Shown: positions 2,972 through 21,266, numbered from the stretch's first letter. The stretch: DNA of 32,000 bases from Nostoc punctiforme PCC 73102 (GCF_000020025.1 NC_010628.1:4410001-4442000), one strand, 5' to 3'. The notes: a model not told the origin generated them from the sequence alone. Numbers and translations: made by a program.

Positions 2972-3301
2972 TTAAAACTGAGGCTTAACATACAAATCCC
3001 ATAATTCTTTTAAGCGCTTTGCATCTGATTCAGAAACTTGCCCGATCTTAGCTAGCAACAAAGATTGTTCTAGACAATCCAATCGAGATAGACGCACAGT
3101 TGAAGCAACACGCAAACCACTTGCAACCCAATCATTCAAAGATACATCAGTTTGTGTACGGGGTTTAGCAGATGTGACTACTGCGGCTACTAGATCATTT
3201 CCATCTAACCACAACACAAGTATTGGACGTTTTTTAGAACCTTCACCGCTAGTAAATGGAATATCTGCTACCCAAAATTCACCGGCTTGGATAGTCGTCA
3301 T
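2972..3301 (-). CDS. Type II toxin, MazF/PemK family endoribonuclease
   Basis: 109 aa. The N-terminus GEFWVADIPFTSGEGSKKRPILVL matches the PemK/MazF signature (G-x-I/F-W-x-x-D, then K-x-RP-x-hydrophobic run). It overlaps the upstream small ORF by 23 nt. Confidence 0.85.
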   Translation of the reverse strand: MTTIQAGEFWVADIPFTSGEGSKKRPILVLWLDGNDLVAAVVTSAKPRTQTDVSLNDWVASGLRVASTVRLSRLDCLEQSLLLAKIGQVSESDAKRLKELWDLYVKPQF

Positions 3302-3500
3302 AAAGTCCTTCGTCTTGTGGTGCGTAGCCGTTCAAAAAAGCATTATGGCTGCGGGTGCTTTCGGTTTCTTTTGCTTTTTGTTGGATGGTAATTACCCAGT
3401 GCCCTGTAGTTATATTTTCCAGTATTGATTCTGGGAGATTCAATTTTTCCCCTGGTTTTAGTTCAATTTCATAAGTTAGAGTAGTCAATTCATTTTGCAT
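3279..3500 (-). CDS. Cognate antitoxin (probably AbrB/MazE-like)
   Basis: 73-aa ORF immediately upstream of the toxin and overlapping it. The acidic C-terminal tail (APQDEGLYDDY) is typical of cyanobacterial antitoxins. The fold assignment is not verified. Confidence 0.6.
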   Translation of the reverse strand: MQNELTTLTYEIELKPGEKLNLPESILENITTGHWVITIQQKAKETESTRSHNAFLNGYAPQDEGLYDDYPSR

Positions 3501-3660: not shown

Positions 3661-5268
3661 TCAGCCCCTAAATTCAATTATTCTCAAGAAACTTATCGCA
3701 ATTTGAACTAATTTTTGAAATCCCAATTTTTGCAACAAACTAGTGATAATTTGTTTATTTTGAATATTAAATATATTTTTCACAAAATCTGGATTGATTT
3801 CAATAGCCTTGTTAATACTTTTATTTCCTTCTTTCCAGCGACCTAATTTAATTAATGCAGCCCCCTTATAATACCAAGCATAGTGGTAATCAGGTTTAAT
3901 TTTTAGTGCTTGGTCGTAAGATGCGATCGCCTCTTCATTGCGTCCTAAATTAGATAGTGCATGGCCCCGATTGTACCAAGCTTGGTGATAATCTGGTTTA
4001 ATTTTCAGTGCTTCGTTAAAAGCGGTAAGTGCTTCTTCATCACATCCTAATTGCCCTAGTGCAAAGCCTTTACCATGCCAGGCTTCGTGTTTATCAGGTT
4101 GAATTGTTACTGTTCTAACGTAGGATGCGAGCGCTTCTTCGTACCGTTCTAATTTTCCAAGTGTATTACCTTGATTGTGCCAAGCCTCCTGATAGTCTGG
4201 TTTAATTTGTACCGCCTCATTATAGGATGCAAGCGCTTCTTCATAGCGTTCTAAATCCCATAGCGTAATTCCCCGATTGTACCAAGCTTGGGGATCATCT
4301 GGTTTAATTTGTACCGCCTCATTATAAGATGCGAGCGCTTCTTCATAGCGTCTTAGATTCCACAATTCAATTCCCTTGTTATTCAAAACTATGTAATCAT
4401 CAGGTTGAAATTTCAGTGCTTGCTCAAAGGAGGCAAGTGCTTCTTCATAACGTCCTAAATTGCGTAATGCCTTACCCTGATTATTCCAAGCCTGGTAGTA
4501 ATCAGGTTGAAATTTCAGTGCTTGGTTGTAAGATGTTATCGCTGCTTCGTATTCCTTAGCAGCGTCTAGTAAATTCCCCTGTTCAACTAGTAAACCTGCC
4601 TTCCGACTCTCTGGCTGATCTTTTTCTGTCAACAAGTCTTGAATTTCTATAACTTTCTCAATTTTTTGTTCAGAGCTGAGTTTCAAATATTCCTCATAGT
4701 CTCCTTCCAACAGCAGGCGAGTTGATTCTTGTTCTACCACCTCTGGCGCTGTAGGTAATTCAAATACTCCAGAACGCCAATCAAAAAAATCTGGGGCGCG
4801 ATGAATAAAATAGTTTATCGAAAAAGAACGTAAAAGAAAAACAAAGCTAATTGGAAAGTCATCTCTAAAGCGTTCTCGCTGTTGGTTTAAGTGATTTAAA
4901 ATATGCGGAACACTGATTAAATTGCTAAATTGTCCTTCTGTAATTTCCCCAAAACTTCTTTTTTCATACTTATATAAAGAATATTCCAGACCTTTAATCA
5001 ATAAAATATCAACTTGCTTGTCTTTAACAGACTCTGCGACTGGCTGATATAAATTATCAATTGCCTCAACAAAGCGCAAAACTGCAATCTTCTTCTGCGG
5101 AATCTCCTGCGGAAGTTTGATAATTAAATTGTCTGCTTCTACAGGTGTACATTGGACGAAAAACAAACCAAATCCTGATTTTCGCCTCAGTGCGCGAAGC
5201 AAGTCTTGATAAGCTTCTTCTGGTTCTGGGGGTAAATCATCATCCCAATCGCTTAAATTTGGGTTCAT
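3661..5268 (-). CDS. TPR-repeat protein with an unassigned ~230-aa N-terminal domain
   Basis: 535 aa. The C-terminal ~300 aa are tandem 34-aa TPR units with the recurring motif YEEALASY..A...KPD...AW.N.G. Two neighbouring units are near-identical at DNA level (4197 vs 4299, 102-nt offset). The ATG overlaps the upstream stop (ATGA at 5265-5268). Confidence 0.85.
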   Translation of the reverse strand: MNPNLSDWDDDLPPEPEEAYQDLLRALRRKSGFGLFFVQCTPVEADNLIIKLPQEIPQKKIAVLRFVEAIDNLYQPVAESVKDKQVDILLIKGLEYSLYKYEKRSFGEITEGQFSNLISVPHILNHLNQQRERFRDDFPISFVFLLRSFSINYFIHRAPDFFDWRSGVFELPTAPEVVEQESTRLLLEGDYEEYLKLSSEQKIEKVIEIQDLLTEKDQPESRKAGLLVEQGNLLDAAKEYEAAITSYNQALKFQPDYYQAWNNQGKALRNLGRYEEALASFEQALKFQPDDYIVLNNKGIELWNLRRYEEALASYNEAVQIKPDDPQAWYNRGITLWDLERYEEALASYNEAVQIKPDYQEAWHNQGNTLGKLERYEEALASYVRTVTIQPDKHEAWHGKGFALGQLGCDEEALTAFNEALKIKPDYHQAWYNRGHALSNLGRNEEAIASYDQALKIKPDYHYAWYYKGAALIKLGRWKEGNKSINKAIEINPDFVKNIFNIQNKQIITSLLQKLGFQKLVQIAISFLRIIEFRG

Positions 5269-10075: not shown

Positions 10076-10340
10076 TCCAGTTCTGCTGTCTAAGACATAG
10101 AATGGAAAGGCTGTATTAAAATAACAATCTGGAGATACTTGCTATGTCTCGTCGCTGTGAACTAACTGGTAAGAAGGCAAATAACGCCTTTGCTGTTTCT
10201 CACTCCCACCGTCGTACAAAACGCCTTCAGCACGCCAATCTGCAAAGCAAGCGTGTTTGGTGGCAAGGCGGAAATCGCTGGGTAAAATTAAAGCTGTCCA
10301 CCAAAGCAATTAAAACCCTAGAAGTTAAGGGGTTAGAAGC

Positions 10341-11520
10341 AAAAGTGTTGAATGTTAAGAAAAATCCGATAAAAACAGCCCAAAATATGTTAAATTTTGG
10401 GCGGAAGATTAAAGTATATCTATTTAATAGTGATTATAAATTCATTTCCCAAGATTGTCAAAGATATCTTGAGAGGACTGCCAAAAAACGATTATCCAGT
10501 ATTGAACAGTCGTCTGTTCTTTGAGTGCTGGTTATCTTATGCTATGGATAACAGCTTAACAAGTATGCGAGATTTATTTAACAGATTAAACAACACAGGA
10601 TTTCCGGTAGATATTTCTACTTTCTCTAAAGCAAACTTACATCGAAGTCAAAAACCTTTTCAAGAAATTTACCAAAAATTAAATGAATTAGTACAGAAGA
10701 AAGTTCAAAAAAAGTTACATGATAAATATGCAATTTGTCCAATAGATTCAACAATTATTACTCTCACAAGTAAATTGTTATGGGTACTAGGACACCATCA
10801 AGTAAAACTTTTCAGTTCTCTAAATTTAGCTACTGGAAGTCCATCAGATAACTTCATAAACTTTGGACATGACCATGACTATAAATTTGGTTGTAAAATG
10901 ATGTCTAGTCTACCAAATAATGCTGTTGGTGTAATGGATAGAGGTTTTGCTGGATTAAAATTTATCCAAGAATTAGTCCAAGAAAACAAATACTTTGTTT
11001 TGCGGGTAAAAAACAATTGGAAGTTAGAATTTGAGGAGCAAACTGGATTAATTAAAGTTGGTGCATCTAATGATGCTCAAGCCTATAGAGTGATTAATTT
11101 TTGTGATTTAGAAACGAAAACTGAGTTTCGATTAGTAACCAATTTACCAACATTAGGAGAGGCTGCCGTTAGTGATTATGAAATCAGGGATATTTATCGA
11201 TTGCGTTGGGGAGTTGAATTGTTGTGGAAGTTTTTGAAAATGCACTTAAAACTTGACAAGTTAATTACTAAAAATGTTAATGGTATCACCATACAAATTT
11301 ACGTTACTTTAATAGCTTATCTAATTTTACAGATATTATCTGTACCACAACAATGGGGACATACGCTATTAGATAAATTCCGCTATTTACAATCTTGTAT
11401 GTGTCAGAAAATAAGTTATGTTCATTGGTTTGAAGAGATGATGTCATGTTGACTATTTTAGGCTTTTTAGAGTTAGTGTAACTAGATATGTAAACTTTTG
11501 TATCAGCATTCAACATTTCT
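10341..11520 (+). mobile_element. IS4-family insertion sequence (~1.18 kb) with 11-13 bp target duplication
   Basis: The direct repeat GGGTTAGAAGC(AA) occurs at 10330-10342 and 11521-11533. The imperfect terminal inverted repeats are AAAAGTGTTGAATGTTAAG and the reverse complement AGAAATGTTGAATGCTGAT. There is a single transposase ORF and no HIP1 site inside. Confidence 0.85.
10397..11452 (+). CDS. IS4-family DDE transposase
   Basis: It contains DRGF and the Y-2-R-3-E-6-K signature ([15 protein letters not shown]). The start is uncertain: 10397 is TTG, a GTG lies at 10430, and there is no early ATG. Confidence 0.85.
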
Positions 11521-12398: not shown

Positions 12399-12493
12399 CT
12401 CCACTCCCAGTAGCTTATATCTAAATTTAGCTTACTCTACTAATGCATTGCTCTAACTCTTCATACAAGTGTTAGCAGAGGAGCATACTTTAA

Positions 12494-12526
12494 AGAAAAA
12501 ACCTCTGGGGACTCCAGAGGTTTTAG
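12494..12526. terminator. Bidirectional-looking intrinsic terminator hairpin with no gene ending at it
   Basis: A perfect 9-11 bp stem, AAAACCTCTGG / CCAGAGGTTTT, with loop GGACT. The minus strand follows it with TTTTTTCTTT and the plus strand with only TTTT. Confidence 0.45.
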
Positions 12527-13804
12527 TTCCTGATTTAGTTTCTACTGGTTACTACAATTTGTCCTCAGTCATTTCCAGATAGAGAAGAAAATTATTTGAT
12601 TTGAAACTAATTACGCCTAAGCAATCAAAGTAATTAAGTGCTTAAATATACTAATAAACAACTAAGGAATGACCTTGCACAAATCTTTATTGAACCAGAG
12701 GAAATTGTCAACTTTTTCAAAAATTTAGTAAAACCTATCTTTAGCTAGAGCAAATTATTCGTAAACACGTCTAGAAATCCTTTTTTGCGAAACTAGAATA
12801 TTTTCATACTATAGATAGATATCTACATCATAAATATGGTAGATAGTAATGGATGTAGTTTTACTACTATGGACAGATGTAGACTTAATATTAATTCATA
12901 AAGTACTGTATTTTTTGGCAACCAATAAGTTAGGTCTCTTGCAATTTGTTCCGATAATAAATTTTAAATGAGCAATTATTATTAGAGTTTAAACTCTATG
13001 TTAAACTCTTACTCTTTTATTCAAATAATTTGTAATATTTTAGTGAAATTATTATCAAGCTTTGATAAATATTTTTTATTTTTTGTAAAAACTATTGACT
13101 AGATGTAGGATTATCCTTAAATAAGAAATAGTGGATTAAGATAAAGTTTGAGTAGCTGTCACTTCGGCGTTGCAATTTTATTCGAGATAGGTTCAAATTT
13201 AGGACTATCTACTGATGAGAAAGTCACTAGTTTTAGATAGCCTAAGAAGTAGATTCATATTCATACCTGACCTTGACTGTTTTTAGCTTCCGATTAACGG
13301 AACAAGATCCAATCTTTGTTGGTAATCAAAACTTAACCTACTAATATTTAAGTAGGTTAATCTATAAATCGTATTGTAGAACTCAGTAAAATCATTAATA
13401 TAAGGGCTACCCGAAGCCTTGAAAGTGTTTACCTATTACCATCAACTAGGGGTAATGGTCTTAACCAATACCATTATTGCACCGGGCTTCAGGAAAATCT
13501 GTCAAATTTTAGCGGCTAACCAGTGATTGGTTTAATGGTTTGAAGTATTTTTATTCCAAGTGAAGACCATTAACGTCCAATTTTAATTTATTAAAACCTG
13601 AATCAAGACAGTAATATCGCTTCTAAATCATCAGAATATTAGGGGTATATATACCTGTCGCTATTTGCACACCAATTCAATATTTAATTAACCATCTAGG
13701 ACTAATTAATTTTGCAGTTGTATATCCTGATATTTCAGGATTAGAAACAGTTGCAAAAGACACATTTGCCCACATTTGACACTTGGTAGCAACTGATAAA
13801 AATT

Positions 13805-14404
13805 ATGTCGGAAAATTTCAGTCAAGAGAAAGCTTTTGAATGCTATGACATGCACGAGAGCAAGTTCTTAACACCTTTCCAACGGAAGGCACTGCTGAAA
13901 AACCTGCAAGCTAATTTACAACCAGAATATCGTCGGCGGATTGAAATTATGTTACTTGCTGATAAAGGTAAATCTCAAAGCCAAATCTGTGAAATCTTAA
14001 GTTGTTCTCAGGAAATGGCACGATACTGGATTGGTTTAGCAGAGGCAGGTTTAGCACATAAATGGAATGAGCGACCGATAGGTAGACCAAAAACTGTTAA
14101 CGATCAATATATTGAACGCTTGAAAGAATTGGTAAGTAATAGTCCGCGTGAATATGGTTACGCATTTAGCTGCTGGACAGCACAATGGTTAAGTAAACAT
14201 TTAGCAAATGAATTTGGCATTGCAATTACCGATCGCCATGTTAATCGGCTGCTAAAAAAAATGGGACTTTCTACTAAGCGCAAAAAATCTTGTCCACAAG
14301 AAACTGATAAAAATAAAGATACTAGTATTACAATCTGCGACTTGCAATCTAACTCTGAACCTAGTTTGCATTGGTCATTTAATCTAATTCAGACCAATAA
14401 CTAA
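13805..14404 (+). CDS. Helix-turn-helix protein resembling the N-terminal DNA-binding half of IS630-type transposases, with no DDE domain
   Basis: 199 aa. The first HTH region is RRRIEIMLLADKGKSQSQICEILSCSQEMARYW and a second winged-helix-like region is CWTAQWLSKHLANEFGIAITDRHVNRLLKKMGLS. The stop lies 21 nt before the ABC gene, which has its own GGAGG. Confidence 0.7.
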   Translation: MSENFSQEKAFECYDMHESKFLTPFQRKALLKNLQANLQPEYRRRIEIMLLADKGKSQSQICEILSCSQEMARYWIGLAEAGLAHKWNERPIGRPKTVNDQYIERLKELVSNSPREYGYAFSCWTAQWLSKHLANEFGIAITDRHVNRLLKKMGLSTKRKKSCPQETDKNKDTSITICDLQSNSEPSLHWSFNLIQTNN

Positions 14405-14425
14405 TACTGTTTTGGAGGTTAGAAA

Positions 14426-17400
14426 ATGCCATCAGCGTTTTCCCAGCAATATTTAGCTGAACAAATTACCCAAGTCTTGGGTAATTCGCTGTCAAAGGAA
14501 GAACTTGATACGTGTCTTGAAGGGCTGAAGATTGTCGAACCACAAGTAGCAAAGCAGTTTTGGCAAGCAACTACAACTAACACAGGAATTTATATTGTCC
14601 TGAGTGGTAAAGTCAGGCTGCTGGATAGCTCTAATAATTTAATTACCACTCTCTTTTCTGGATCGTCATTTGGCGAGTTAACTTTATTTCCAGAAAAGGA
14701 ATTTAGTCCTTATGTGGCTAGAGCTTCGGCAAACTTAAAGCTTTGCTATATCAATCAAGAGACTTTACAAGAGGTAATTCGGACATCGCTTAGTGTCCGC
14801 GATCGCCTTTTAAGACGCGCAGAGGTCTGGGATTTGCTGCTGTTATGTTGTTACAACTCCTTAATTGGGCATAATGGCTCCGTTGAGGAGACCTTTAAAG
14901 CGCTATCTCTATTTGAGCGACACAATCTAGAAAGTGGTTCTTTGAGTGCCAATCTCACTAAAGATATCAAGCTTTGGTTGCTGTATCGGGGCGAACTGCT
15001 GGATTCTCATGGGCAAAGATTGACACCTGGAAACATCCACGTGAATCCCAAAGACGGAAGTTTGCAGGTAGCGCAATCAGCGATCGCTTACAGTTTGAGT
15101 AATGCGGATTGGCAAACAGCTCTACAACACTGGCCGCAATTAGCAGAGTTGATAGATTCCCAAGAGCCTCAAACTGTCCTGGAGAGTGAAGATTTCGGTC
15201 TGGGGACTAGGAAAAACTCTTCCCAATCCCCAATCCCCATTACCCCTTATCCCCAGAGGGGACACCACCTTCCCCAATCCCCAATTCCCAACATTGAGCC
15301 AAAACAAAAGCAAAGGAAACAACGACCGTACTTTCCTAGCCCAAAAGTAAAGGCTGGGCATTGGTTGGGACGCTTGACTAAACGGTATCCGTTTTTTGAA
15401 CAACAAAGCGCCTCTGACTGTGGAGCATCTTGCCTGGTGATGATTAGTCGCTATTGGGGTAAACGCTTTAATGTCAACCGCATCCGAGATTTAACTAACG
15501 TCAGTCGCAGTGGAGCATCAATGCGGGGTTTGACAGCCGCAGCAGAAAGTATCGGCTTTTCTACCCGTCCGGTGAAAGCTAGCTTCGATAAACTAGCCCA
15601 ACAACCCCTACCTGCGATCGCTCACTGGGAAGGTAAGCACTATGTTGTTGTCTATGAAGTCAATAAAAAACGGGTGATTATTGGCGACCCCGCCATCGGT
15701 CAACGTACCCTTACCGCTAGCGAATTTAAAGCCGGTTGGACTGGTTATGCCCTGTTATTGCAACCCACAGACTTACTCAAAGAAACCCAAGAAGCGACTA
15801 CAGCATTTTGGCAGTTTTTTGATTTAGTTAAACCTCACTCGCAAGTACTGTTAGAAGTGTTTCTCGCTTCGGTGTTGATTCAGGTGTTTGGACTAGTTAC
15901 ACCTCTATTTACCCAGCTACTGTTAGACCGAGTAATTGTACAGGGTAGTACTTTAACTTTAAATGCCGTTGGTTTAGGCTTACTAATTTTTGGTTTTTTC
16001 CGCGTTGCTCTGAATGGACTGCGGCAATATCTACTAGATCACACAGCCAATCGTCTGTCACTAACACTGCTGGTAGGTTTTATTAAGCATACCTTTCGCT
16101 TGCCCCTAGCTTTTTTTGAGTCGCGGTACGTTGGCGATATTGTCTCTCGCGTCCAAGAAAATCAAAAAATTCAGCGCTTCTTAACTGGAGAAGCACTATC
16201 TATTGGTTTGGATTTGATGACAGTATTTGTCTATCTGGCATTGATGTTTTGGTATAGCTGGCAAATGGCATTGTTCAGTTTAGCGATCGTCCCGCCTTTT
16301 GTATTCTTGGCGCTGGTCGCTACACCTTTTTTGCGCCGCATTAGCCGCGAAGTTTTTAATGCTTCAGCTAAAGAAAACAGTTATTTGATTCAATCTCTCA
16401 CGGGTATTCGCTCAGTTCGCTCAATGGCAATTGAGCAAACAGTCCGGTGGCATTGGGAAGAACTGCTGAATAATGTCATTAAAAAGACCTTTAGCGGTCA
16501 GGTAATTAGTAACCAACTACAAATTTTTAGTTCTAGTATCGAATCACTAGTTACTACAGGATTACTTTGGTTTGGTGCATGGCAGGTAATTCAAAATCAA
16601 CTGACTATTGGACAATTAATTGCCTTCAATATGTTATTAGGTAACGTAATTCGACCTTTCCAAAGACTCGTTGTCCTGTGGAATCAGTTGCAAGAGGTGA
16701 TCATTTCCACTGAGCGAATTAATGATGTTTTAGAAGCAGAGCCAGAAGAAGATTTACAATTTCAACCCCGTCAGAGTTTAAGTAGTTTGCGCGGTCATAT
16801 TGTATTTGAAAATGTGACTTTTCGTTATCATCCAGAAAGTGAGATTAACGTGTTAGAAAACCTCAGTTTTGAAATCAAACCTGAGCAAACTATAGCGGTT
16901 GTAGGGCGTAGTGGTTCTGGAAAAACAACCCTCTCCAAACTGATTTTAGGGCTATATCTGCCGACGGATGGCAAAATTTTGATTGATGGTCAAGATGTGA
17001 CTAATATTTCTCTGCGATCGCTCCGCTCCCAAATTGGCGTTGTAGACCAAGATACCTTTTTGTTTGGCGGTACGATTCAGGAGAATATCAGTATTGCTCA
17101 TCCAGAAGTTTCGCAAGAAGAAATTATTGAAGCGGCGCGGCTAGCAGGAGCAGATGAGTTTATTAAGCTAATGCCAATGGGCTACGAAACCCAAATTGGT
17201 GAAGGTGGGGGTATGTTATCCGGTGGACAACGCCAACGCCTAGCGATCGCTCGTGCTTTGTTAGGAAACCCCTGCTTCTTGATATTCGATGAAGCAACCA
17301 GTCACTTAGACGCTGAATCTGAGCGGATTATTCAGCACAACCTGACAAAAATTCTTCAAGGACGCACAAGTTTAATTATTGCTCATCGTCTCTCTACAGT

Positions 17401-17530
17401 GCGTAATGCTGACTTAATTTTGGTTTTAGATCGGGGCATTTTGGTCGAAAGCGGCACTCACGAGCAATTAATCGCTAAAAAAGGACATTATTTTTATCTC
17501 AATCAGCAACAACTAGCGCAAACAGGTTGA
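14426..17530 (+). CDS. Peptidase C39 domain-containing ABC exporter with an N-terminal cyclic-nucleotide-binding-like domain
   Basis: 1034 aa. The cNMP-like beta-roll is GSSFGELTLF...ARAS. The C39 triad context is QQSASDCGASCL, HWEGKHYVVVYEV and IGDPA. It has six-TM-type ABC membrane region, Walker A GRSGSGKTT, signature LSGGQRQR and Walker B LIFDEATSHLD. A GGAGG lies 8 nt upstream of the ATG. Confidence 0.92.
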   Translation: MPSAFSQQYLAEQITQVLGNSLSKEELDTCLEGLKIVEPQVAKQFWQATTTNTGIYIVLSGKVRLLDSSNNLITTLFSGSSFGELTLFPEKEFSPYVARASANLKLCYINQETLQEVIRTSLSVRDRLLRRAEVWDLLLLCCYNSLIGHNGSVEETFKALSLFERHNLESGSLSANLTKDIKLWLLYRGELLDSHGQRLTPGNIHVNPKDGSLQVAQSAIAYSLSNADWQTALQHWPQLAELIDSQEPQTVLESEDFGLGTRKNSSQSPIPITPYPQRGHHLPQSPIPNIEPKQKQRKQRPYFPSPKVKAGHWLGRLTKRYPFFEQQSASDCGASCLVMISRYWGKRFNVNRIRDLTNVSRSGASMRGLTAAAESIGFSTRPVKASFDKLAQQPLPAIAHWEGKHYVVVYEVNKKRVIIGDPAIGQRTLTASEFKAGWTGYALLLQPTDLLKETQEATTAFWQFFDLVKPHSQVLLEVFLASVLIQVFGLVTPLFTQLLLDRVIVQGSTLTLNAVGLGLLIFGFFRVALNGLRQYLLDHTANRLSLTLLVGFIKHTFRLPLAFFESRYVGDIVSRVQENQKIQRFLTGEALSIGLDLMTVFVYLALMFWYSWQMALFSLAIVPPFVFLALVATPFLRRISREVFNASAKENSYLIQSLTGIRSVRSMAIEQTVRWHWEELLNNVIKKTFSGQVISNQLQIFSSSIESLVTTGLLWFGAWQVIQNQLTIGQLIAFNMLLGNVIRPFQRLVVLWNQLQEVIISTERINDVLEAEPEEDLQFQPRQSLSSLRGHIVFENVTFRYHPESEINVLENLSFEIKPEQTIAVVGRSGSGKTTLSKLILGLYLPTDGKILIDGQDVTNISLRSLRSQIGVVDQDTFLFGGTIQENISIAHPEVSQEEIIEAARLAGADEFIKLMPMGYETQIGEGGGMLSGGQRQRLAIARALLGNPCFLIFDEATSHLDAESERIIQHNLTKILQGRTSLIIAHRLSTVRNADLILVLDRGILVESGTHEQLIAKKGHYFYLNQQQLAQTG
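15199..15292. repeat. STRR-type heptamer module embedded in-frame in the ABC transporter linker
   Basis: CTGGGGACTAGG ... CCCAATCCCCAATCCCCAT ... CCCCAATCCCCAATTCCCAAC. It translates as GLGTRKNSSQSPIPITPYPQRGHHLPQSPIPNIEP, between the cNMP-like region and the C39 domain. Confidence 0.6.
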
Positions 17531-17566
17531 AAGAGACTCAGAAATAGGGGATGAAGGAAATTAGAT

Positions 17567-17822
17567 ATTCGTTCATCCACCTTTGAACTGGATTCATCCA
17601 CATCAGATACTCGTTCATCCACCTTTGAACTGGATTCATCCACATCAAATACTCGTTCATCCACCTTTGAACTGGATTCATCCACATCAGATACTCGTTC
17701 ATCCACCTTTGAACCGGATTCATCCACATCAAATACTCGTTCATCCACCTTTGAACCGGATTCATCCACCTCAGATACTCGTTCATCCACCTTTGAACTG
17801 GATTCATCTACCCCAAATACTC
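17567..17822. repeat. Six tandem 42-nt units, equal to twelve 21-nt-phased TTCATCCAC boxes, between the ABC and HlyD genes
   Basis: TTCATCCAC occurs at 17572, 17593, 17614, 17635, 17656, 17677, 17698, 17719, 17740, 17761 and 17782. A degenerate TTCATCTAC is at 17803. The spacing is exactly 21 nt. Confidence 0.92.
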
Positions 17823-17885
17823 AAAATCTCCAATCCAGCCCTAATTACAAATTAGCCTGTCCCTAATCCCCAACGTCCAATTCTT

Positions 17886-19433
17886 ATGCCAAACCCATCC
17901 AATAATTCATCATCCGCCTTCGCCATCCCAAAACCAACTGAATTTCACCTGGTGGAAGACACAAATGCCATCTTTCACCCTCAAACACAAAAAACATCTG
18001 AAGCAAACGATTGGTTTTACGGCACTGAGGAACTGCTAGATGCCTTACCAAAACTCTGGACGCGCTCCATGTTGTATTTACTGGTAGGCTTTGCTGGAAT
18101 CATCTTACCTTGGGCAATGCTTTCTAAAGTTGATGAAACAGGGAGTGCTAGAGGGCGGATGGAACCTGAAGGAGCAACCCAAAAATTAGATAGTCCAGTT
18201 ACTGGTAGCATTACCGCAGTCAATGTCAAAGAAGGCTCAACTGTAAAGGCAGGACAGATTTTAGTTCAATTAGAGTCTGATGTGCTGCGAACGGATTTGC
18301 AGCAGGTGCAGACAAAACTGGAAGGTTTATTGAATCGGCGATCGCAACTGGATCTTCTGAAAAACCAAATTATCTTGACTATTAACATCCAAGAGCAACA
18401 AAATAAATCCCAAGAATTAGAAAAACTTGCTCAAGTTAGTCAGGCACAGCAAAATCTAGATGCTAAACAGAGTACCTATAACTCACAAAGACTAGAAAAA
18501 CTGGCTTTAGTACAACAAGCTAGCCAGAATATCAGTTCTACCAAAATTGCTCAAAAGTTAGCGAAGAGTCGTTTCAGCCGAGATGTCACAGAAGTTGCGC
18601 GTTATCGCCAGCTTGTGCGGCAAGGTGCAATTCCCCAAATCAAAGTTGTGGAATTAGAAAAGATTGCAGAAGAAAGTCAACGCTTACAGGAACAAGCAAA
18701 ATCTGATATCACACAAGCAAAGTTGCGCTTCAAAGAAGAACTTAACCGCTATCAGTCGTTGATGAGTCAAGCCTTTTCAGATATTCAGCAGGCAAAACTT
18801 AGTCTGCAAGAACAGCAAAGCAGCTATCGCAGTGTGGTGCAAGCAGGTAGACTAGCGGTGCTGAAAAATCAGGAACAGCTTAAAGATTTACAAGGACAAA
18901 TTACTAGCCTGCAATCAGAAATTGCTCAAACAGGAAGCCAGATTGCATCTTTACAGCTACAGATGCAGCAACGAATAGTGCGATCGCCTATTGATGGTAC
19001 AGTTTTCGAGTTGCCTATCCACAAACCAGGATCTGTAGTTGAACCAGGACAGATGATTGCCCAAATTGCGCCCAACAATACTCCTTTGATTCTCAAAGCG
19101 CAGATGCCTAGCCAACAAAGCGGTTTTTTAAAGGTAGGAATGCCAGTTAAAATCAAATTTGATGCTTATCCCTTCCAAGATTATGGGGTAGTGCAAGGAC
19201 GCGTTAGCTGGATTTCGCCTAACTCGAAAGTTCAAGCCGCTAATCAAGGTAACATCGAAACCTATGAGTTGGAAATCTCCCTACTTCAGCCCTATATCCA
19301 AACTGCCAACAAACGTATCCCTCTAACACCAGGTCAAACTGCAAGCGCAGAGGTGGTTATCCGCCAACGCCGGATTGTAGATTTTATTTTAGATCCGTTT
19401 AAGAAGTTACAACAAGGTGGTTTAGACCTATAG
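17886..19433 (+). CDS. HlyD-family periplasmic adaptor (membrane fusion protein)
   Basis: 515 aa. It has an N-terminal TM segment (LYLLVGFAGIILPWAML), a lipoyl-like motif (GSITAVNVKEGSTVKAGQILVQLES), a long Q-rich coiled coil and a C-terminal beta-barrel motif (SPIDGTVFEL). Confidence 0.9.
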   Translation: MPNPSNNSSSAFAIPKPTEFHLVEDTNAIFHPQTQKTSEANDWFYGTEELLDALPKLWTRSMLYLLVGFAGIILPWAMLSKVDETGSARGRMEPEGATQKLDSPVTGSITAVNVKEGSTVKAGQILVQLESDVLRTDLQQVQTKLEGLLNRRSQLDLLKNQIILTINIQEQQNKSQELEKLAQVSQAQQNLDAKQSTYNSQRLEKLALVQQASQNISSTKIAQKLAKSRFSRDVTEVARYRQLVRQGAIPQIKVVELEKIAEESQRLQEQAKSDITQAKLRFKEELNRYQSLMSQAFSDIQQAKLSLQEQQSSYRSVVQAGRLAVLKNQEQLKDLQGQITSLQSEIAQTGSQIASLQLQMQQRIVRSPIDGTVFELPIHKPGSVVEPGQMIAQIAPNNTPLILKAQMPSQQSGFLKVGMPVKIKFDAYPFQDYGVVQGRVSWISPNSKVQAANQGNIETYELEISLLQPYIQTANKRIPLTPGQTASAEVVIRQRRIVDFILDPFKKLQQGGLDL

Positions 19434-19498
19434 AAATTCGGTAAGTTACAGTAATTTTCAGGTAATTAAACCGTAGCTTAGAACATGAGCAACAAGAT

Positions 19499-19523
19499 CC
19501 CCGACTTTTTTAATAAGTCGGGG
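19499..19523. other. 9-bp stem-loop CCCCGACTT / AAGTCGGGG downstream of hlyD
   Basis: The stem is perfect with a 7-nt loop and lies 66 nt after the stop. No T-run follows on the plus strand, so it resembles a dispersed hairpin more than a canonical terminator. Confidence 0.4.
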
Positions 19524-19804
19524 TGAGCCTCATGGTTCAATTTCTATCAAGTATTGCTAACTTTTATTTAAGCAGTTATTTTTTTAACTTTTCATATATT
19601 TTATTGATATTCATAATTTAAATACAAAAATATTGATTTTATAAAAATCTTTTTGCAATGACACAAAATAAAATATTAAGGCTACTATTAGACAGAGGCA
19701 ATAAATAATTAAATCTAAAAATATAGTATAGATGTAATTAATATTGTCCGATTAATCCTGATAATATCCTATTGATTTAGGTTAACCATTGGAGGAATTA
19801 GATT

Positions 19805-20587
19805 ATGTCAAATGTATTGACTGTTTCTCCTGATGATATTCTTAACCACATAAAGCTTGCTTGCCAAATCCCTAATATATTAGAGTCGATCGCAACCCGA
19901 AAAATTATTGAACAGGAAGCGAAAAAAGCAGGTATTCAAATTGGTTTAGAAGAACTACAACGCGCAGCAGATAGCCTGCGTTTAGCCAACCAACTGCTTA
20001 AAGCAGAAGATACCTGGGCGTGGTTAGAAAAATATCATCTTTCTTTAGACGACTTTGAAGCAATAGCCGAAAACAACCTTCTCTCAGCCAAATTAGCAAA
20101 TCATTTATTTGCAGACAAAGCTGAACAATTTTTTTATGCACATCAACTCGATTACATTGCAGCAGTTACTTATGAAGTTGTATTAGATGATGAAGATTTA
20201 GCGCTAGAACTATTTTATGCGCTGCAAGAAGGGGAAATTAGTTTTCAACAAATCGCCCGTCAATACATTCAAAATACCGAAATACGCCGGGCTGGAGGAT
20301 ATCAAGGAATACGTCTACGCACTGATTTTAGACCGGAGATTGCAGCAGCCATATTTGCTGCTAATCCCCCACAAATTCTCAAGCCAATAACTACTCCCAA
20401 AGGAGTGCATATAATTGCAGTAGAGGAAATCATTAAACCTCAATTAGACGAGCAAAGACGACTAAAAATCATCGGAGACTTGTTTACTAATTGGTTAAAG
20501 TCACAAACTGCTGCTATGGAAATAGTAACAAAGCTCACAAAGGATGTTAGTCCTCAAGTATCTAAAGATGTGTTAATACAGGCTTAA
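19805..20587 (+). CDS. Parvulin (PpiC)-type peptidyl-prolyl isomerase-like protein with a helical N-terminal domain
   Basis: 260 aa. The C-terminal half carries the parvulin pattern GGYQG...FRPEIAAAIFAA.P.QILKPITTPKGVHIIAVEE. No signal peptide is apparent. A strong GGAGG lies 8 nt upstream. Confidence 0.75.
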   Translation: MSNVLTVSPDDILNHIKLACQIPNILESIATRKIIEQEAKKAGIQIGLEELQRAADSLRLANQLLKAEDTWAWLEKYHLSLDDFEAIAENNLLSAKLANHLFADKAEQFFYAHQLDYIAAVTYEVVLDDEDLALELFYALQEGEISFQQIARQYIQNTEIRRAGGYQGIRLRTDFRPEIAAAIFAANPPQILKPITTPKGVHIIAVEEIIKPQLDEQRRLKIIGDLFTNWLKSQTAAMEIVTKLTKDVSPQVSKDVLIQA

Positions 20588-20672
20588 TACCATCACCATC
20601 ATTTGTGGTGGCTTTAGCGCTGTTCTGATTGCAACCAATCTTTTACGCAACGCAACCATGCTACTGTTCTAA
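20577..20672 (+). pseudogene. Possible remnant of an FAD/NAD(P)-binding protein N-terminus
   Basis: A start-less frame reads TITIICGGFSAVLIATNLLRNATMLLF then stop. It resembles a Rossmann beta-alpha-beta dinucleotide-binding start. At only ~30 codons the evidence is weak. Confidence 0.3.
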
Positions 20673-20753
20673 GATAGGATTGCTACAAGTATTGACTTTA
20701 GGGGAGAGGTGACAGGTGATAGAGAATAATCTGCACCCAATCCCCTTTAAATA

Positions 20754-21266
20754 TCAGTGTTTAATTTCCAAATTAAGTATGTAGCATCCTAACTGGACTT
20801 TTTCTGCCCACAATTCATATTCCAGACGTAAATGCTCTGGTAAAGGATGTCCATTGAGAGTTAGGCTACTAGTAAAATTTCGTAACCGAATAGGGTCATT
20901 AGGTTGCAACGACTCAGTTGGCAACCAATAGCGACTAATACCATAAACGCCCTGTTCCCAAAAGTGACGGTAACTCACTTGAGCGTTACCTTGCATAGTC
21001 ATGATGACTCGATAAGGGGAAATCTCCAGCCACAAAATTCTCGGGCTGTTAGGGGCGTAAGCTTTGCTCTTACTTTGGGGAAGCGTATCCTCTGGACTTA
21101 CGACACTCTCGACTTCGCAGCTGATTAGGGGCGGTGCAGTTAGCAGCAAATGGAATCTATCAGTATCTTTTTGATACAATGTCGCGGCAGTTTCGACAAC
21201 AGACCAAATTGGTAGGTCAGTGGAAATAAGTGATAAGCACACGGGCTTGCGGTGATGAGTCAGCAT
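20754..21266 (-). CDS. Hypothetical protein (170 aa)
   Basis: A clean ATG-initiated ORF with non-repetitive, protein-like composition. No motif was recognised. Confidence 0.55.
   Translation of the reverse strand: MLTHHRKPVCLSLISTDLPIWSVVETAATLYQKDTDRFHLLLTAPPLISCEVESVVSPEDTLPQSKSKAYAPNSPRILWLEISPYRVIMTMQGNAQVSYRHFWEQGVYGISRYWLPTESLQPNDPIRLRNFTSSLTLNGHPLPEHLRLEYELWAEKVQLGCYILNLEIKH

Follow-up and report, generated by a model that had tools for sequence, protein, structure and literature searches.

A long-type C39 ABC exporter locus of Nostoc punctiforme PCC 73102 and its probable separation from a double-glycine peptide module

In a 32,000-nucleotide (nt) stretch of DNA from Nostoc punctiforme PCC 73102 (GCF_000020025.1, NC_010628.1:4410001-4442000; the whole stretch is called the window, with positions counted from its first letter), four consecutive plus-strand genes encode a helix-turn-helix (HTH) protein, a peptidase-containing ATP-binding cassette (ABC) exporter, a HlyD-family adaptor and a parvulin-like protein (Table 1). 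A preliminary description of this exporter locus had pointed out that the exporter carries an apparently active leader peptidase and that no cargo gene is visible beside it; the cargo was proposed to be encoded elsewhere, to be unconventional or to be the parvulin-like protein itself. All four genes were found where they had been placed, as full-length open reading frames (ORFs). The adaptor scores 221.6 bits against TIGR01843 (NCBIfam cut-off 208.65). The hairpin described between the HlyD and parvulin-like genes is present, as is the strong Shine-Dalgarno sequence of the latter gene, which reads GGAGG at 19791-19795, 9 nt 5' of the ATG.

Table 1. Features of the exporter locus and its flanks (aa, amino acids; CNB, cyclic-nucleotide-binding; AF2, AlphaFold2; pLDDT, predicted local distance difference test; TRF, Tandem Repeats Finder)
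Feature	Position	Strand	Basis and remarks
Remnant, 5' end of second parvulin-like paralogue	12653..12723 (ORF 12638-12748)	+	blastn
Conserved non-coding block 5' of HTH gene	13020..13551	+	66-91% identity
HTH-only protein, 199 aa	13805..14404	+	IS630-type N-terminal half; WP_041565492.1 (exact match)
Long-type peptidase-containing ABC transporter, 1034 aa	14426..17530	+	ACC81924.1 (exact match)
CNB-like domain A, aa 1-143	14426..14854	+	Pfam cNMP_binding; AF2 pLDDT >90
Second, degenerate CNB-like beta-roll, aa 153-246	14882..15163	+	AF2 model; undetected by Pfam
Disordered Pro/Gln-rich linker, aa 250-310	15173..15355	+	pLDDT <50-60; lowest sequence conservation
C39 double-glycine peptidase domain	15386..15769	+	Q326, C332, H405, D421; Pfam
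42-nt x 6.2 tandem repeat, ABC-HlyD spacer	17563..17822	+	TRF score 450; variable-number
HlyD-family periplasmic adaptor	17886..19433	+	ACC81925.1 (exact match); TIGR01843; syntenic
G+C-rich stable hairpin 3' of HlyD gene	19499..19523	+	sequence read; precedes A+T-rich gap
Parvulin-like protein, PrsA/SurA type, 260 aa	19805..20587	+	ACC81926.1 (exact match); Pfam Rotamase
Rearrangement breakpoint	20588..20753	.	conservation profile; tblastn of L081 module

We compared the locus with 80 orthologous loci, one genome per species, whose ABC proteins are 67-98% identical. The HTH gene stands directly 5' of the ABC gene in about 75 of them (HTH identity 58-98%), usually with 21-24 nt to the ABC start codon, and the HlyD and parvulin-like genes come next in the row wherever the contig permits. 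Conservation of the quartet in related genomes, on which the preliminary description had staked its reading, was thus borne out in about 75 of the 80 Nostocales loci. Within the clade of N. punctiforme, in which the cluster is split as described below, the ratio of nonsynonymous to synonymous substitution rates (dN/dS) of the four genes is 0.05-0.2, with the HTH gene the most constrained. The four-gene operon is under purifying selection.

The ABC protein matches Pfam Peptidase_C39 (aa 321-448, 140 bits), ABC_membrane (179 bits) and ABC_tran (123 bits). The Gln, Cys, His and Asp residues listed in Table 1 fall on the catalytic positions of PCAT1 (4ry2; the C21A variant 7n87 marks the Cys column), so that the catalytic residues are intact, as had been read by eye; the domain was also aligned residue by residue to the structures of ComA and LahT, and 117 of 120 ABC orthologues retain the QQSxxDCG motif. 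The nucleotide-binding domain (NBD) is complete, with Walker A from aa 827, the signature at aa 931, Walker B at D955-E956 and the H-loop at aa 985. By its sequence, with the C39 residues, a six-helix transmembrane domain (TMD) and the complete NBD, the protein qualifies as a peptidase-containing ABC transporter (PCAT), and it would cleave and export double-glycine (GG) substrates, candidates for which come from comparative genomics. It shares the C39 residues one to one and the type IV ABC exporter core with PCAT1 of Clostridium thermocellum, ComA and LahT; these, in contrast, have no 320-aa tandem CNB-like extension, and they belong to Gram-positive systems with no HlyD/TolC conduit.

The N-terminus of the exporter had been read as a cyclic-nucleotide-binding-type beta-roll, and the fold is supported from several sides. 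Pfam cNMP_binding matches aa 51-120 with 38 bits (cut-off 27.5), and the PDB sequence matches are CLP and CRP. In an AF2 model of the ABC protein (mean pLDDT 85), Foldseek aligned some 260-270 columns to the tandem CNB-A/B domains of the cAMP-dependent protein kinase regulatory subunit (PKA-R) and of the cGMP-dependent protein kinase (PKG), with E ~5e-13. The model thus presents the 320-aa N-terminal extension as a tandem CNB module, PKA-R-like in its arrangement.

The idea that the exporter is nucleotide-gated, which had been tied to an intact phosphate-binding cassette, fared less well. The cassette of domain A reads FGELTLFPEKEFSPYVARA, with S94/P95 at the positions of CRP R82/S83, and the Arg at this place makes the contact with the cyclic phosphate in both CRP and CLP. 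Position 94 is moreover variable (S, I, Q, N or R) across the 120 orthologues. The residue numbers follow the CRP sequence; alignments were computed for CLP and TtCRP. HetC, a paralogue of the exporter, bound guanosine tetraphosphate (ppGpp), GTP and GDP in vitro, and did not bind cyclic AMP (cAMP), 2-oxoglutarate or cyclic di-GMP (PMC10986499). Since the cassette Arg is replaced and HetC binds ppGpp and not cAMP, gating by a cyclic nucleotide appears doubtful.

The HTH protein matches Pfam HTH_32, HTH_33 and HTH_28, with no other family types. Of the 299 positions in the NCBIfam model of the IS630 transposase, it covers 1-127 at a score of 82.9 (cut-off 100), and the DDE part is missing, in agreement with the earlier view that it is only the DNA-binding half of an IS630-type transposase. 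The 120 best HTH homologues are all 193-227 aa long and none has a DDE domain. We therefore rejected the annotation of the gene as an IS630-family transposase, given the missing DDE domain, the score below the cut-off and the fixed place in about 75 of 80 loci. Because of its synteny, its uniform length without DDE and its dN/dS, the protein is a domesticated component of the cluster rather than a decaying insertion sequence (IS) fragment, and it is a putative cluster regulator.

The parvulin-like protein matches Pfam Rotamase with 41 bits and, weakly, TIGR04500, a 'peptide maturation system' model. In the alignment with PrsA, the first catalytic His and the Asp/Cys give way to E124 and Y166 (likewise with Pin1), and H202 is kept; a second parvulin-like paralogue, found upstream in other genomes, has the same substitution pattern. 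A GGYxG motif is conserved in its orthologues and in the upstream paralogue. These features point to a separate subfamily, related to TIGR04500 and possibly without isomerase activity. The protein has no signal peptide and is predicted to be cytoplasmic, with its greatest similarity to PrsA foldases, and a role as chaperone or presenter of precursors is plausible.

The absence of an adjacent cargo gene was confirmed for the entire window by three approaches. Regular expressions for GG or Gly-Ala (GA) leaders, applied to ORFs of 20-170 aa and also run on the 80 loci, gave spurious matches only; the NCBIfam models, those for NHLP, Nif11 and class II leaders among them, recognized no leader in 85 intergenic small ORFs; and a profile built from 169 cognate precursors had no match in the six-frame translation. 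The four intergenic zones around the genes (12405-13804, 17531-17885, 19434-19804 and 20588-20753) hold no cargo candidate, and an M16 peptidase, an APH_ChoK-like kinase and a precursor array are likewise absent from the window. No Pfam or NCBIfam model matches the cognate precursor family itself, and therefore the scan with Nif11/NHLP hidden Markov models that had been proposed would have missed these precursors.

The cognate precursors became apparent in related genomes. The T. variabilis orthologue (P0064) is 75% identical and has the same four genes, inside the cluster Ava_4372-4382. There, 3' of the parvulin gene and on the opposite strand, lie a HetP-family gene (NF037966, 101 bits), a HopA1-domain protein and an APH/EcKL kinase, followed by seven peptides of 73-85 aa and an M16 peptidase. 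The leaders of these peptides read MAFIAVKELQVTGAELFQDSESFLNELNNLDNSVHGG followed by G, and their positions -4, -12 and -15 are hydrophobic, which is usual for C39 substrates; across the Nostocales a typical leader is MAxIxLSELxxxGSELFQDSESFLN[DE]Lxx[VL]Dxxxx-GG. An opposite-strand downstream module with one to eight such GG-leader peptides (~70-90 aa) occurs at 42 of the 80 orthologous loci, including Nostoc genomes whose ABC proteins are 84-90% identical, and it is accompanied by an APH-type kinase and a HopA1-type lyase, frequently joined by a HetP-like gene. The equivalent peptide set of PCC 7120 is asl1930 and asl1933-asl1937.

In N. punctiforme, the corresponding genes are found far from the exporter. 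A HopA1 protein (ACC81369), a kinase (ACC81370) and a 77-aa GA-leader peptide (ACC81371, Npun_R2838; leader MPKITISDLHTDDSEGFLIDISNLDYISIYAG followed by ADD) form a row in which Npun_R2838 stands 553 protein accessions, or about 550 genes, before the exporter. Judged from gene density, the distance would be roughly 0.6-0.7 Mb. The sister strain Nostoc sp. UCD121 also carries the module apart from the exporter, on a different 45-kb contig with a TetR gene, two M16 peptidases, six small peptides, the kinase and HopA1; four of the six peptides have an FQDSESFL...YGG leader.

The point of separation is sharp. In the window and in its closest relatives (loci L001, L003 and L065), homology to the loci that are linked to cargo stops at the stop codon of the parvulin-like gene. 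Beyond it lie, in this clade, a Nostoc-wide hypothetical gene and then gatC and ycf3; beyond the same point in other genomes lie the HetP-like gene, HopA1, the kinase and the GG-peptide array. The hypothetical gene (20754-21266, minus strand; ACC81927.1, 170 aa) has no Pfam or NCBIfam match and is shared by many genomes of Nostoc (its cluster has 160 members). It adjoins the parvulin-like gene only in this clade and therefore marks the far side of the breakpoint.

Clusters of this kind are already catalogued. C39 ABC transporters that carry an additional CAP_ED domain at the N-terminus were termed long-type by Wang et al. (2011; PMC3140520), in whose groups I, II and VI they occur together with HlyD and a rotamase ('SurA'); the architecture had been described earlier by Dirix (2004), as cited there. 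The domains of group II (Table S2) further include COG3415, 'transposase and inactivated derivatives', APH_ChoK_like and the M16 peptidase, and group I has the same set without the modification genes and with 0.35 precursors per cluster on average. N. punctiforme PCC 73102 was within the data set of that study. The locus had been taken for one that is generically annotated and not functionally described, and this proposed novelty is not correct, the architecture being recorded by Wang et al. with its CAP_ED, rotamase and COG3415 partners. The absence of cargo is therefore a recorded property too, in view of the group I average.

In terms of these groups, the locus has the CAP_ED long-type transporter, the HlyD adaptor, the rotamase and a COG3415-type inactivated transposase of group II, as in the type cluster Ava_4372-4382 and in asl1930-asl1937, the former of which contains its orthologue. 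It differs from them in having none of the genes for the M16 peptidase, the APH kinase, HopA1, the HetP-like protein and the precursors next to it, and the window has no M16 gene, APH_ChoK-like kinase or precursor array beside the exporter. With the modification and precursor genes about 550 genes away, the locus by itself looks like group I and belongs to group II by orthology.

We consider it probable that the locus is one half of a Wang group II double-glycine cluster, namely the half responsible for transport, processing and regulation, which a rearrangement split from the half that encodes and modifies the cargo. Of the options for the missing cargo, its location elsewhere in the genome is thus the one favored by the data, with the detached module at ACC81369-ACC81371. 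Such a displacement of the peptide genes explains the missing cargo and dissolves the puzzle of an active leader peptidase with nothing to cleave, the detached module being the likely source of substrates.

The gene content, the intact catalytic residues, the synteny, the split and the purifying selection are observations; we infer the substrate assignment, the nature of the ligand and each mechanistic step given below. In the ancestral layout, which most Nostocales retain, an HTH-PCAT-HlyD-parvulin operon converges on a second operon with the M16 peptidase(s), one to eight tandem GG-leader peptides, the APH-type kinase, the HopA1-type lyase and the HetP-like gene. In the N. punctiforme clade, a rearrangement has severed the cluster directly after the parvulin gene, leaving the cargo and modification half at Npun_R2836-R2838 and upstream, some 550 genes away. 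The kinase and the HopA1 lyase might dehydrate Ser and Thr of the precursors, by analogy with class V lanthipeptides; the cytoplasmic parvulin-like protein would hold or present the precursors; and the C39 domain would cleave after GG or GA. Export would then proceed through the ABC dimer together with the HlyD adaptor and an outer-membrane factor of TolC type whose gene lies elsewhere, with the tandem CNB-like domains gating the transporter, probably in response to a ligand other than cAMP or cyclic GMP, and with the domesticated IS630 HTH protein controlling transcription.

The modification step leans on class V lanthipeptide enzymes. In class V lanthipeptides and thioamitides, Ser/Thr are dehydrated by an APH-like kinase that works with a HopA1-like lyase (PMC9486802), and the LanK/LanY pair (CaoK/CaoY; PMC9486802) stands beside its precursors just as the kinase and HopA1 do in the partner module. 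In contrast to those systems, the partner module lies outside the window, the precursor cores shown have no Cys, and no cyclase or decarboxylase gene was seen. As the cores have no Cys, lanthionine rings are not expected.

Several observations weigh against this split-cluster reading. About 30 of the 80 loci have no module within 10 kb, some of them being cut by contig ends. N. punctiforme itself has one GA-type peptide beside the kinase and HopA1, the array being documented in relatives only. The read assemblies that contain Npun_R2838 (L087, L099 and L100) end ~230-280 nt upstream of the peptide gene; near-identical tandem peptide genes at that place may be the cause, as such ends are the pattern expected from them. 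The precursor cores lack Cys, and hence the role of the kinase and HopA1 is suggested by analogy. The exporter and the peptides are paired by genome comparison, and PCATs can be promiscuous. Finally, Table S3 of Wang et al. (PMC3140520), which searched for precursors within +/-20 kb, assigns to a N. punctiforme group II cluster five other putative precursors, CDS7-9, Npun_R3386 and Npun_R3387, at 4,229,781-4,232,021, and by accession arithmetic CDS7-9 and Npun_R3386/R3387 may lie 2-6 kb beyond the left edge of the window.

This assignment underlies an alternative in which the exporter serves other N. punctiforme double-glycine peptides of the NHLP/Nif11 type, such as Npun_R3386/R3387, instead of the FQDSESFL-leader peptides or in addition to them. 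The accessions (Npun_R2838 = ACC81371, ABC = ACC81924) allow Npun_R3386/R3387 a place a few kb left of the window, and C39 domains such as that of LahT are known to tolerate varied substrates (PMC6363468). However, neither the window nor the adjoining 1.9 kb on its left contains CDS7-9 or Npun_R3386/R3387, the space between the exporter and the left of the window is taken by housekeeping genes (ClpB, HtpG, L28) and an IS4 element, and the conserved neighbors across the 80 genomes are FQDSESFL-leader peptides, not NHLP/Nif11. We regard this alternative as unlikely. The relic hypothesis, in which an orphaned locus is decaying after the loss of its cargo, would account for the detached cargo module, the deletion of the upstream paralogue (12653-12723), the nearby IS4 element and the expansion of a tandem repeat inside the operon. 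Four full-length ORFs, intact catalytic and ATPase motifs and a dN/dS of 0.05-0.2 within the split clade argue against decay and make the hypothesis highly improbable. That the parvulin-like protein is itself the exported cargo is scarcely credible: it has no signal peptide, is last in the row and has its own Shine-Dalgarno sequence, but its N-terminus carries no GG-type leader, its architecture resembles that of PrsA-type foldases, its nearest NCBIfam model is the 'peptide maturation system', and elsewhere it co-occurs with true GG peptides as a conserved accessory gene, often with a second paralogue upstream.

A further alternative follows from the resemblance to HetC-type developmental exporters that had been noted for the locus, and would make it a HetC-like exporter of a non-GG signal, possibly tied to HetP-like proteins. 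HetC of PCC 7120 shares the domain order (cNMP-like, C39, TMD, NBD) and the intact catalytic Cys, His and Walker B Glu; it, too, has no adjacent GG-leader gene and no known substrate (PMC10986499). A HetP-family gene is associated with the wider family in both cases, and the HetP-like gene (NF037966, 101 bits) at the flank of orthologous clusters mirrors the hetC-hetP pairing. HetC is not known to have HlyD, parvulin or HTH partners, and hetC and hetP are adjacent. The common architecture thus stands. Orthology does not: the ABC protein of the window is a paralogue of HetC, for which ppGpp binding was shown, and its T. variabilis orthologue lies in Ava_4372-4382 and not beside hetP Ava_1098, which is listed apart as unclassified (Wang et al. 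2011, PMC3140520). This verdict on orthology to HetC (alr2817) was reached from the position relative to hetP. Moreover, the orthologous loci abound in GG-leader peptides of the classical kind, which are hydrophobic at -4, -12 and -15, and the window contains no HetP-like gene, so we judge a HetC-like function quite unlikely.

The PteB/EbfG system of Synechococcus elongatus PCC 7942 is similar in combining a C39-ABC protein with HlyD and in exporting small non-antibiotic GG-motif proteins (PMC4997328), and different in that the precursors are adjacent there. The best Anabaena homologues of PteB are the short-type Alr7014, Alr1201 and Alr5147, the long-type Alr1927 being only 32% identical (PMC12267927). 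We rejected PteB as a close analogue, as it is short-type.

If the split-cluster reading is right, the precursor family provides clear substrate candidates for a class in which no long-type CNB-C39 exporter, HetC included, has a proven substrate. The pairing of the APH kinase with the HopA1 lyase suggests that these widespread peptides are dehydrated products akin to peptides that ribosomes synthesize and that are then modified post-translationally (RiPPs). A broader proposal, possible though on the unlikely side, is that the exporter makes up, together with the detached kinase/HopA1/GG-peptide module, a single signaling-peptide system that is conserved in Nostocales and works in trans across ~0.6 Mb. 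It would combine Cys-free GG peptides dehydrated by the kinase and lyase, a catalytically altered parvulin as their chaperone, gating through the tandem CNB module by a non-cyclic nucleotide such as ppGpp, as in HetC, and control by the domesticated IS630 HTH protein via the conserved 530-nt block upstream of its gene. In that case, the recurrent HetP-like neighbor would link the system with commitment to development. Because N. punctiforme is amenable to genetics, these questions are directly testable.

One distant locus (L078) carries a 125-aa ORF at 3834-4211, ~6 kb 5' of the ABC gene, with another type of leader that ends in MIISDLEHLATVSQNNSLNAEQIIGG, followed by NYF. Long-type exporters may therefore pair with more than one precursor family.

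The region 5' of the HTH gene (12405-13804) had been described as a 1.4-kb ORF-free leader. It indeed has no ORF longer than 49 aa, but it contains the remnant of a parvulin-like paralogue and a conserved non-coding block. The remnant matches the first ~60 nt of the upstream paralogue of loci L020, L025, L029, L042, L055, L061, L068 and L081, and about 20 other loci have the paralogue intact between Uma2 or other genes and the start of the four-gene row, directly 5' of the HTH gene, in many cases with a HetP-like gene still further upstream. More than 25 loci, which represent about a dozen genera of Nostocales, share the block, the intergenic DNA on either side not being conserved. It includes TTGACT at 13095-13100, ends in a hairpin that is followed by a T-run (near 13515-13560), and has no conserved ORF; a 23-aa ORF at 13215-13286 is not conserved (in L004 it has a stop at codon 4). 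A structured RNA was considered and rejected, given an RNAalifold covariation term of only -0.54 kcal/mol and no Rfam match, which leaves the block as a candidate promoter or long 5' leader. Rfam and tRNA scans gave no match, and a promoter/terminator scan gave no enrichment over shuffled sequences. Further 5', at 12498-12524, a perfect 11-bp hairpin, AAAACCTCTGG...CCAGAGGTTTT, bordered by runs of A and T, resembles a bidirectional terminator and lies within a segment of ~110 nt that is 84-91% conserved in many Nostoc loci.

The tandem repeat between the ABC and HlyD genes has an internal 21-nt sub-period and leaves three reading frames open. It has six copies in N. punctiforme, one in Nostoc sp. 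UCD121, seven in LEGE 12450 and six in LEGE 12447, and none in NMS2 and in more distant Nostoc. An IS4-family transposase gene (10397-11452; NF033592, 191 bits) overlaps the end of the ORF 10144-10524, whose exact product is labelled Ribosomal_L28 in a read assembly. In the N. punctiforme read assembly L089, the L28-labelled gene is followed by a 64-aa ORF and Uma2, with no transposase gene called. Near the left end of the window (2972-3500, minus strand), between ClpB and a tetratricopeptide repeat (TPR) protein, a PemK-family toxin (109 aa) and an overlapping 73-aa upstream partner make up a probable toxin-antitoxin pair.

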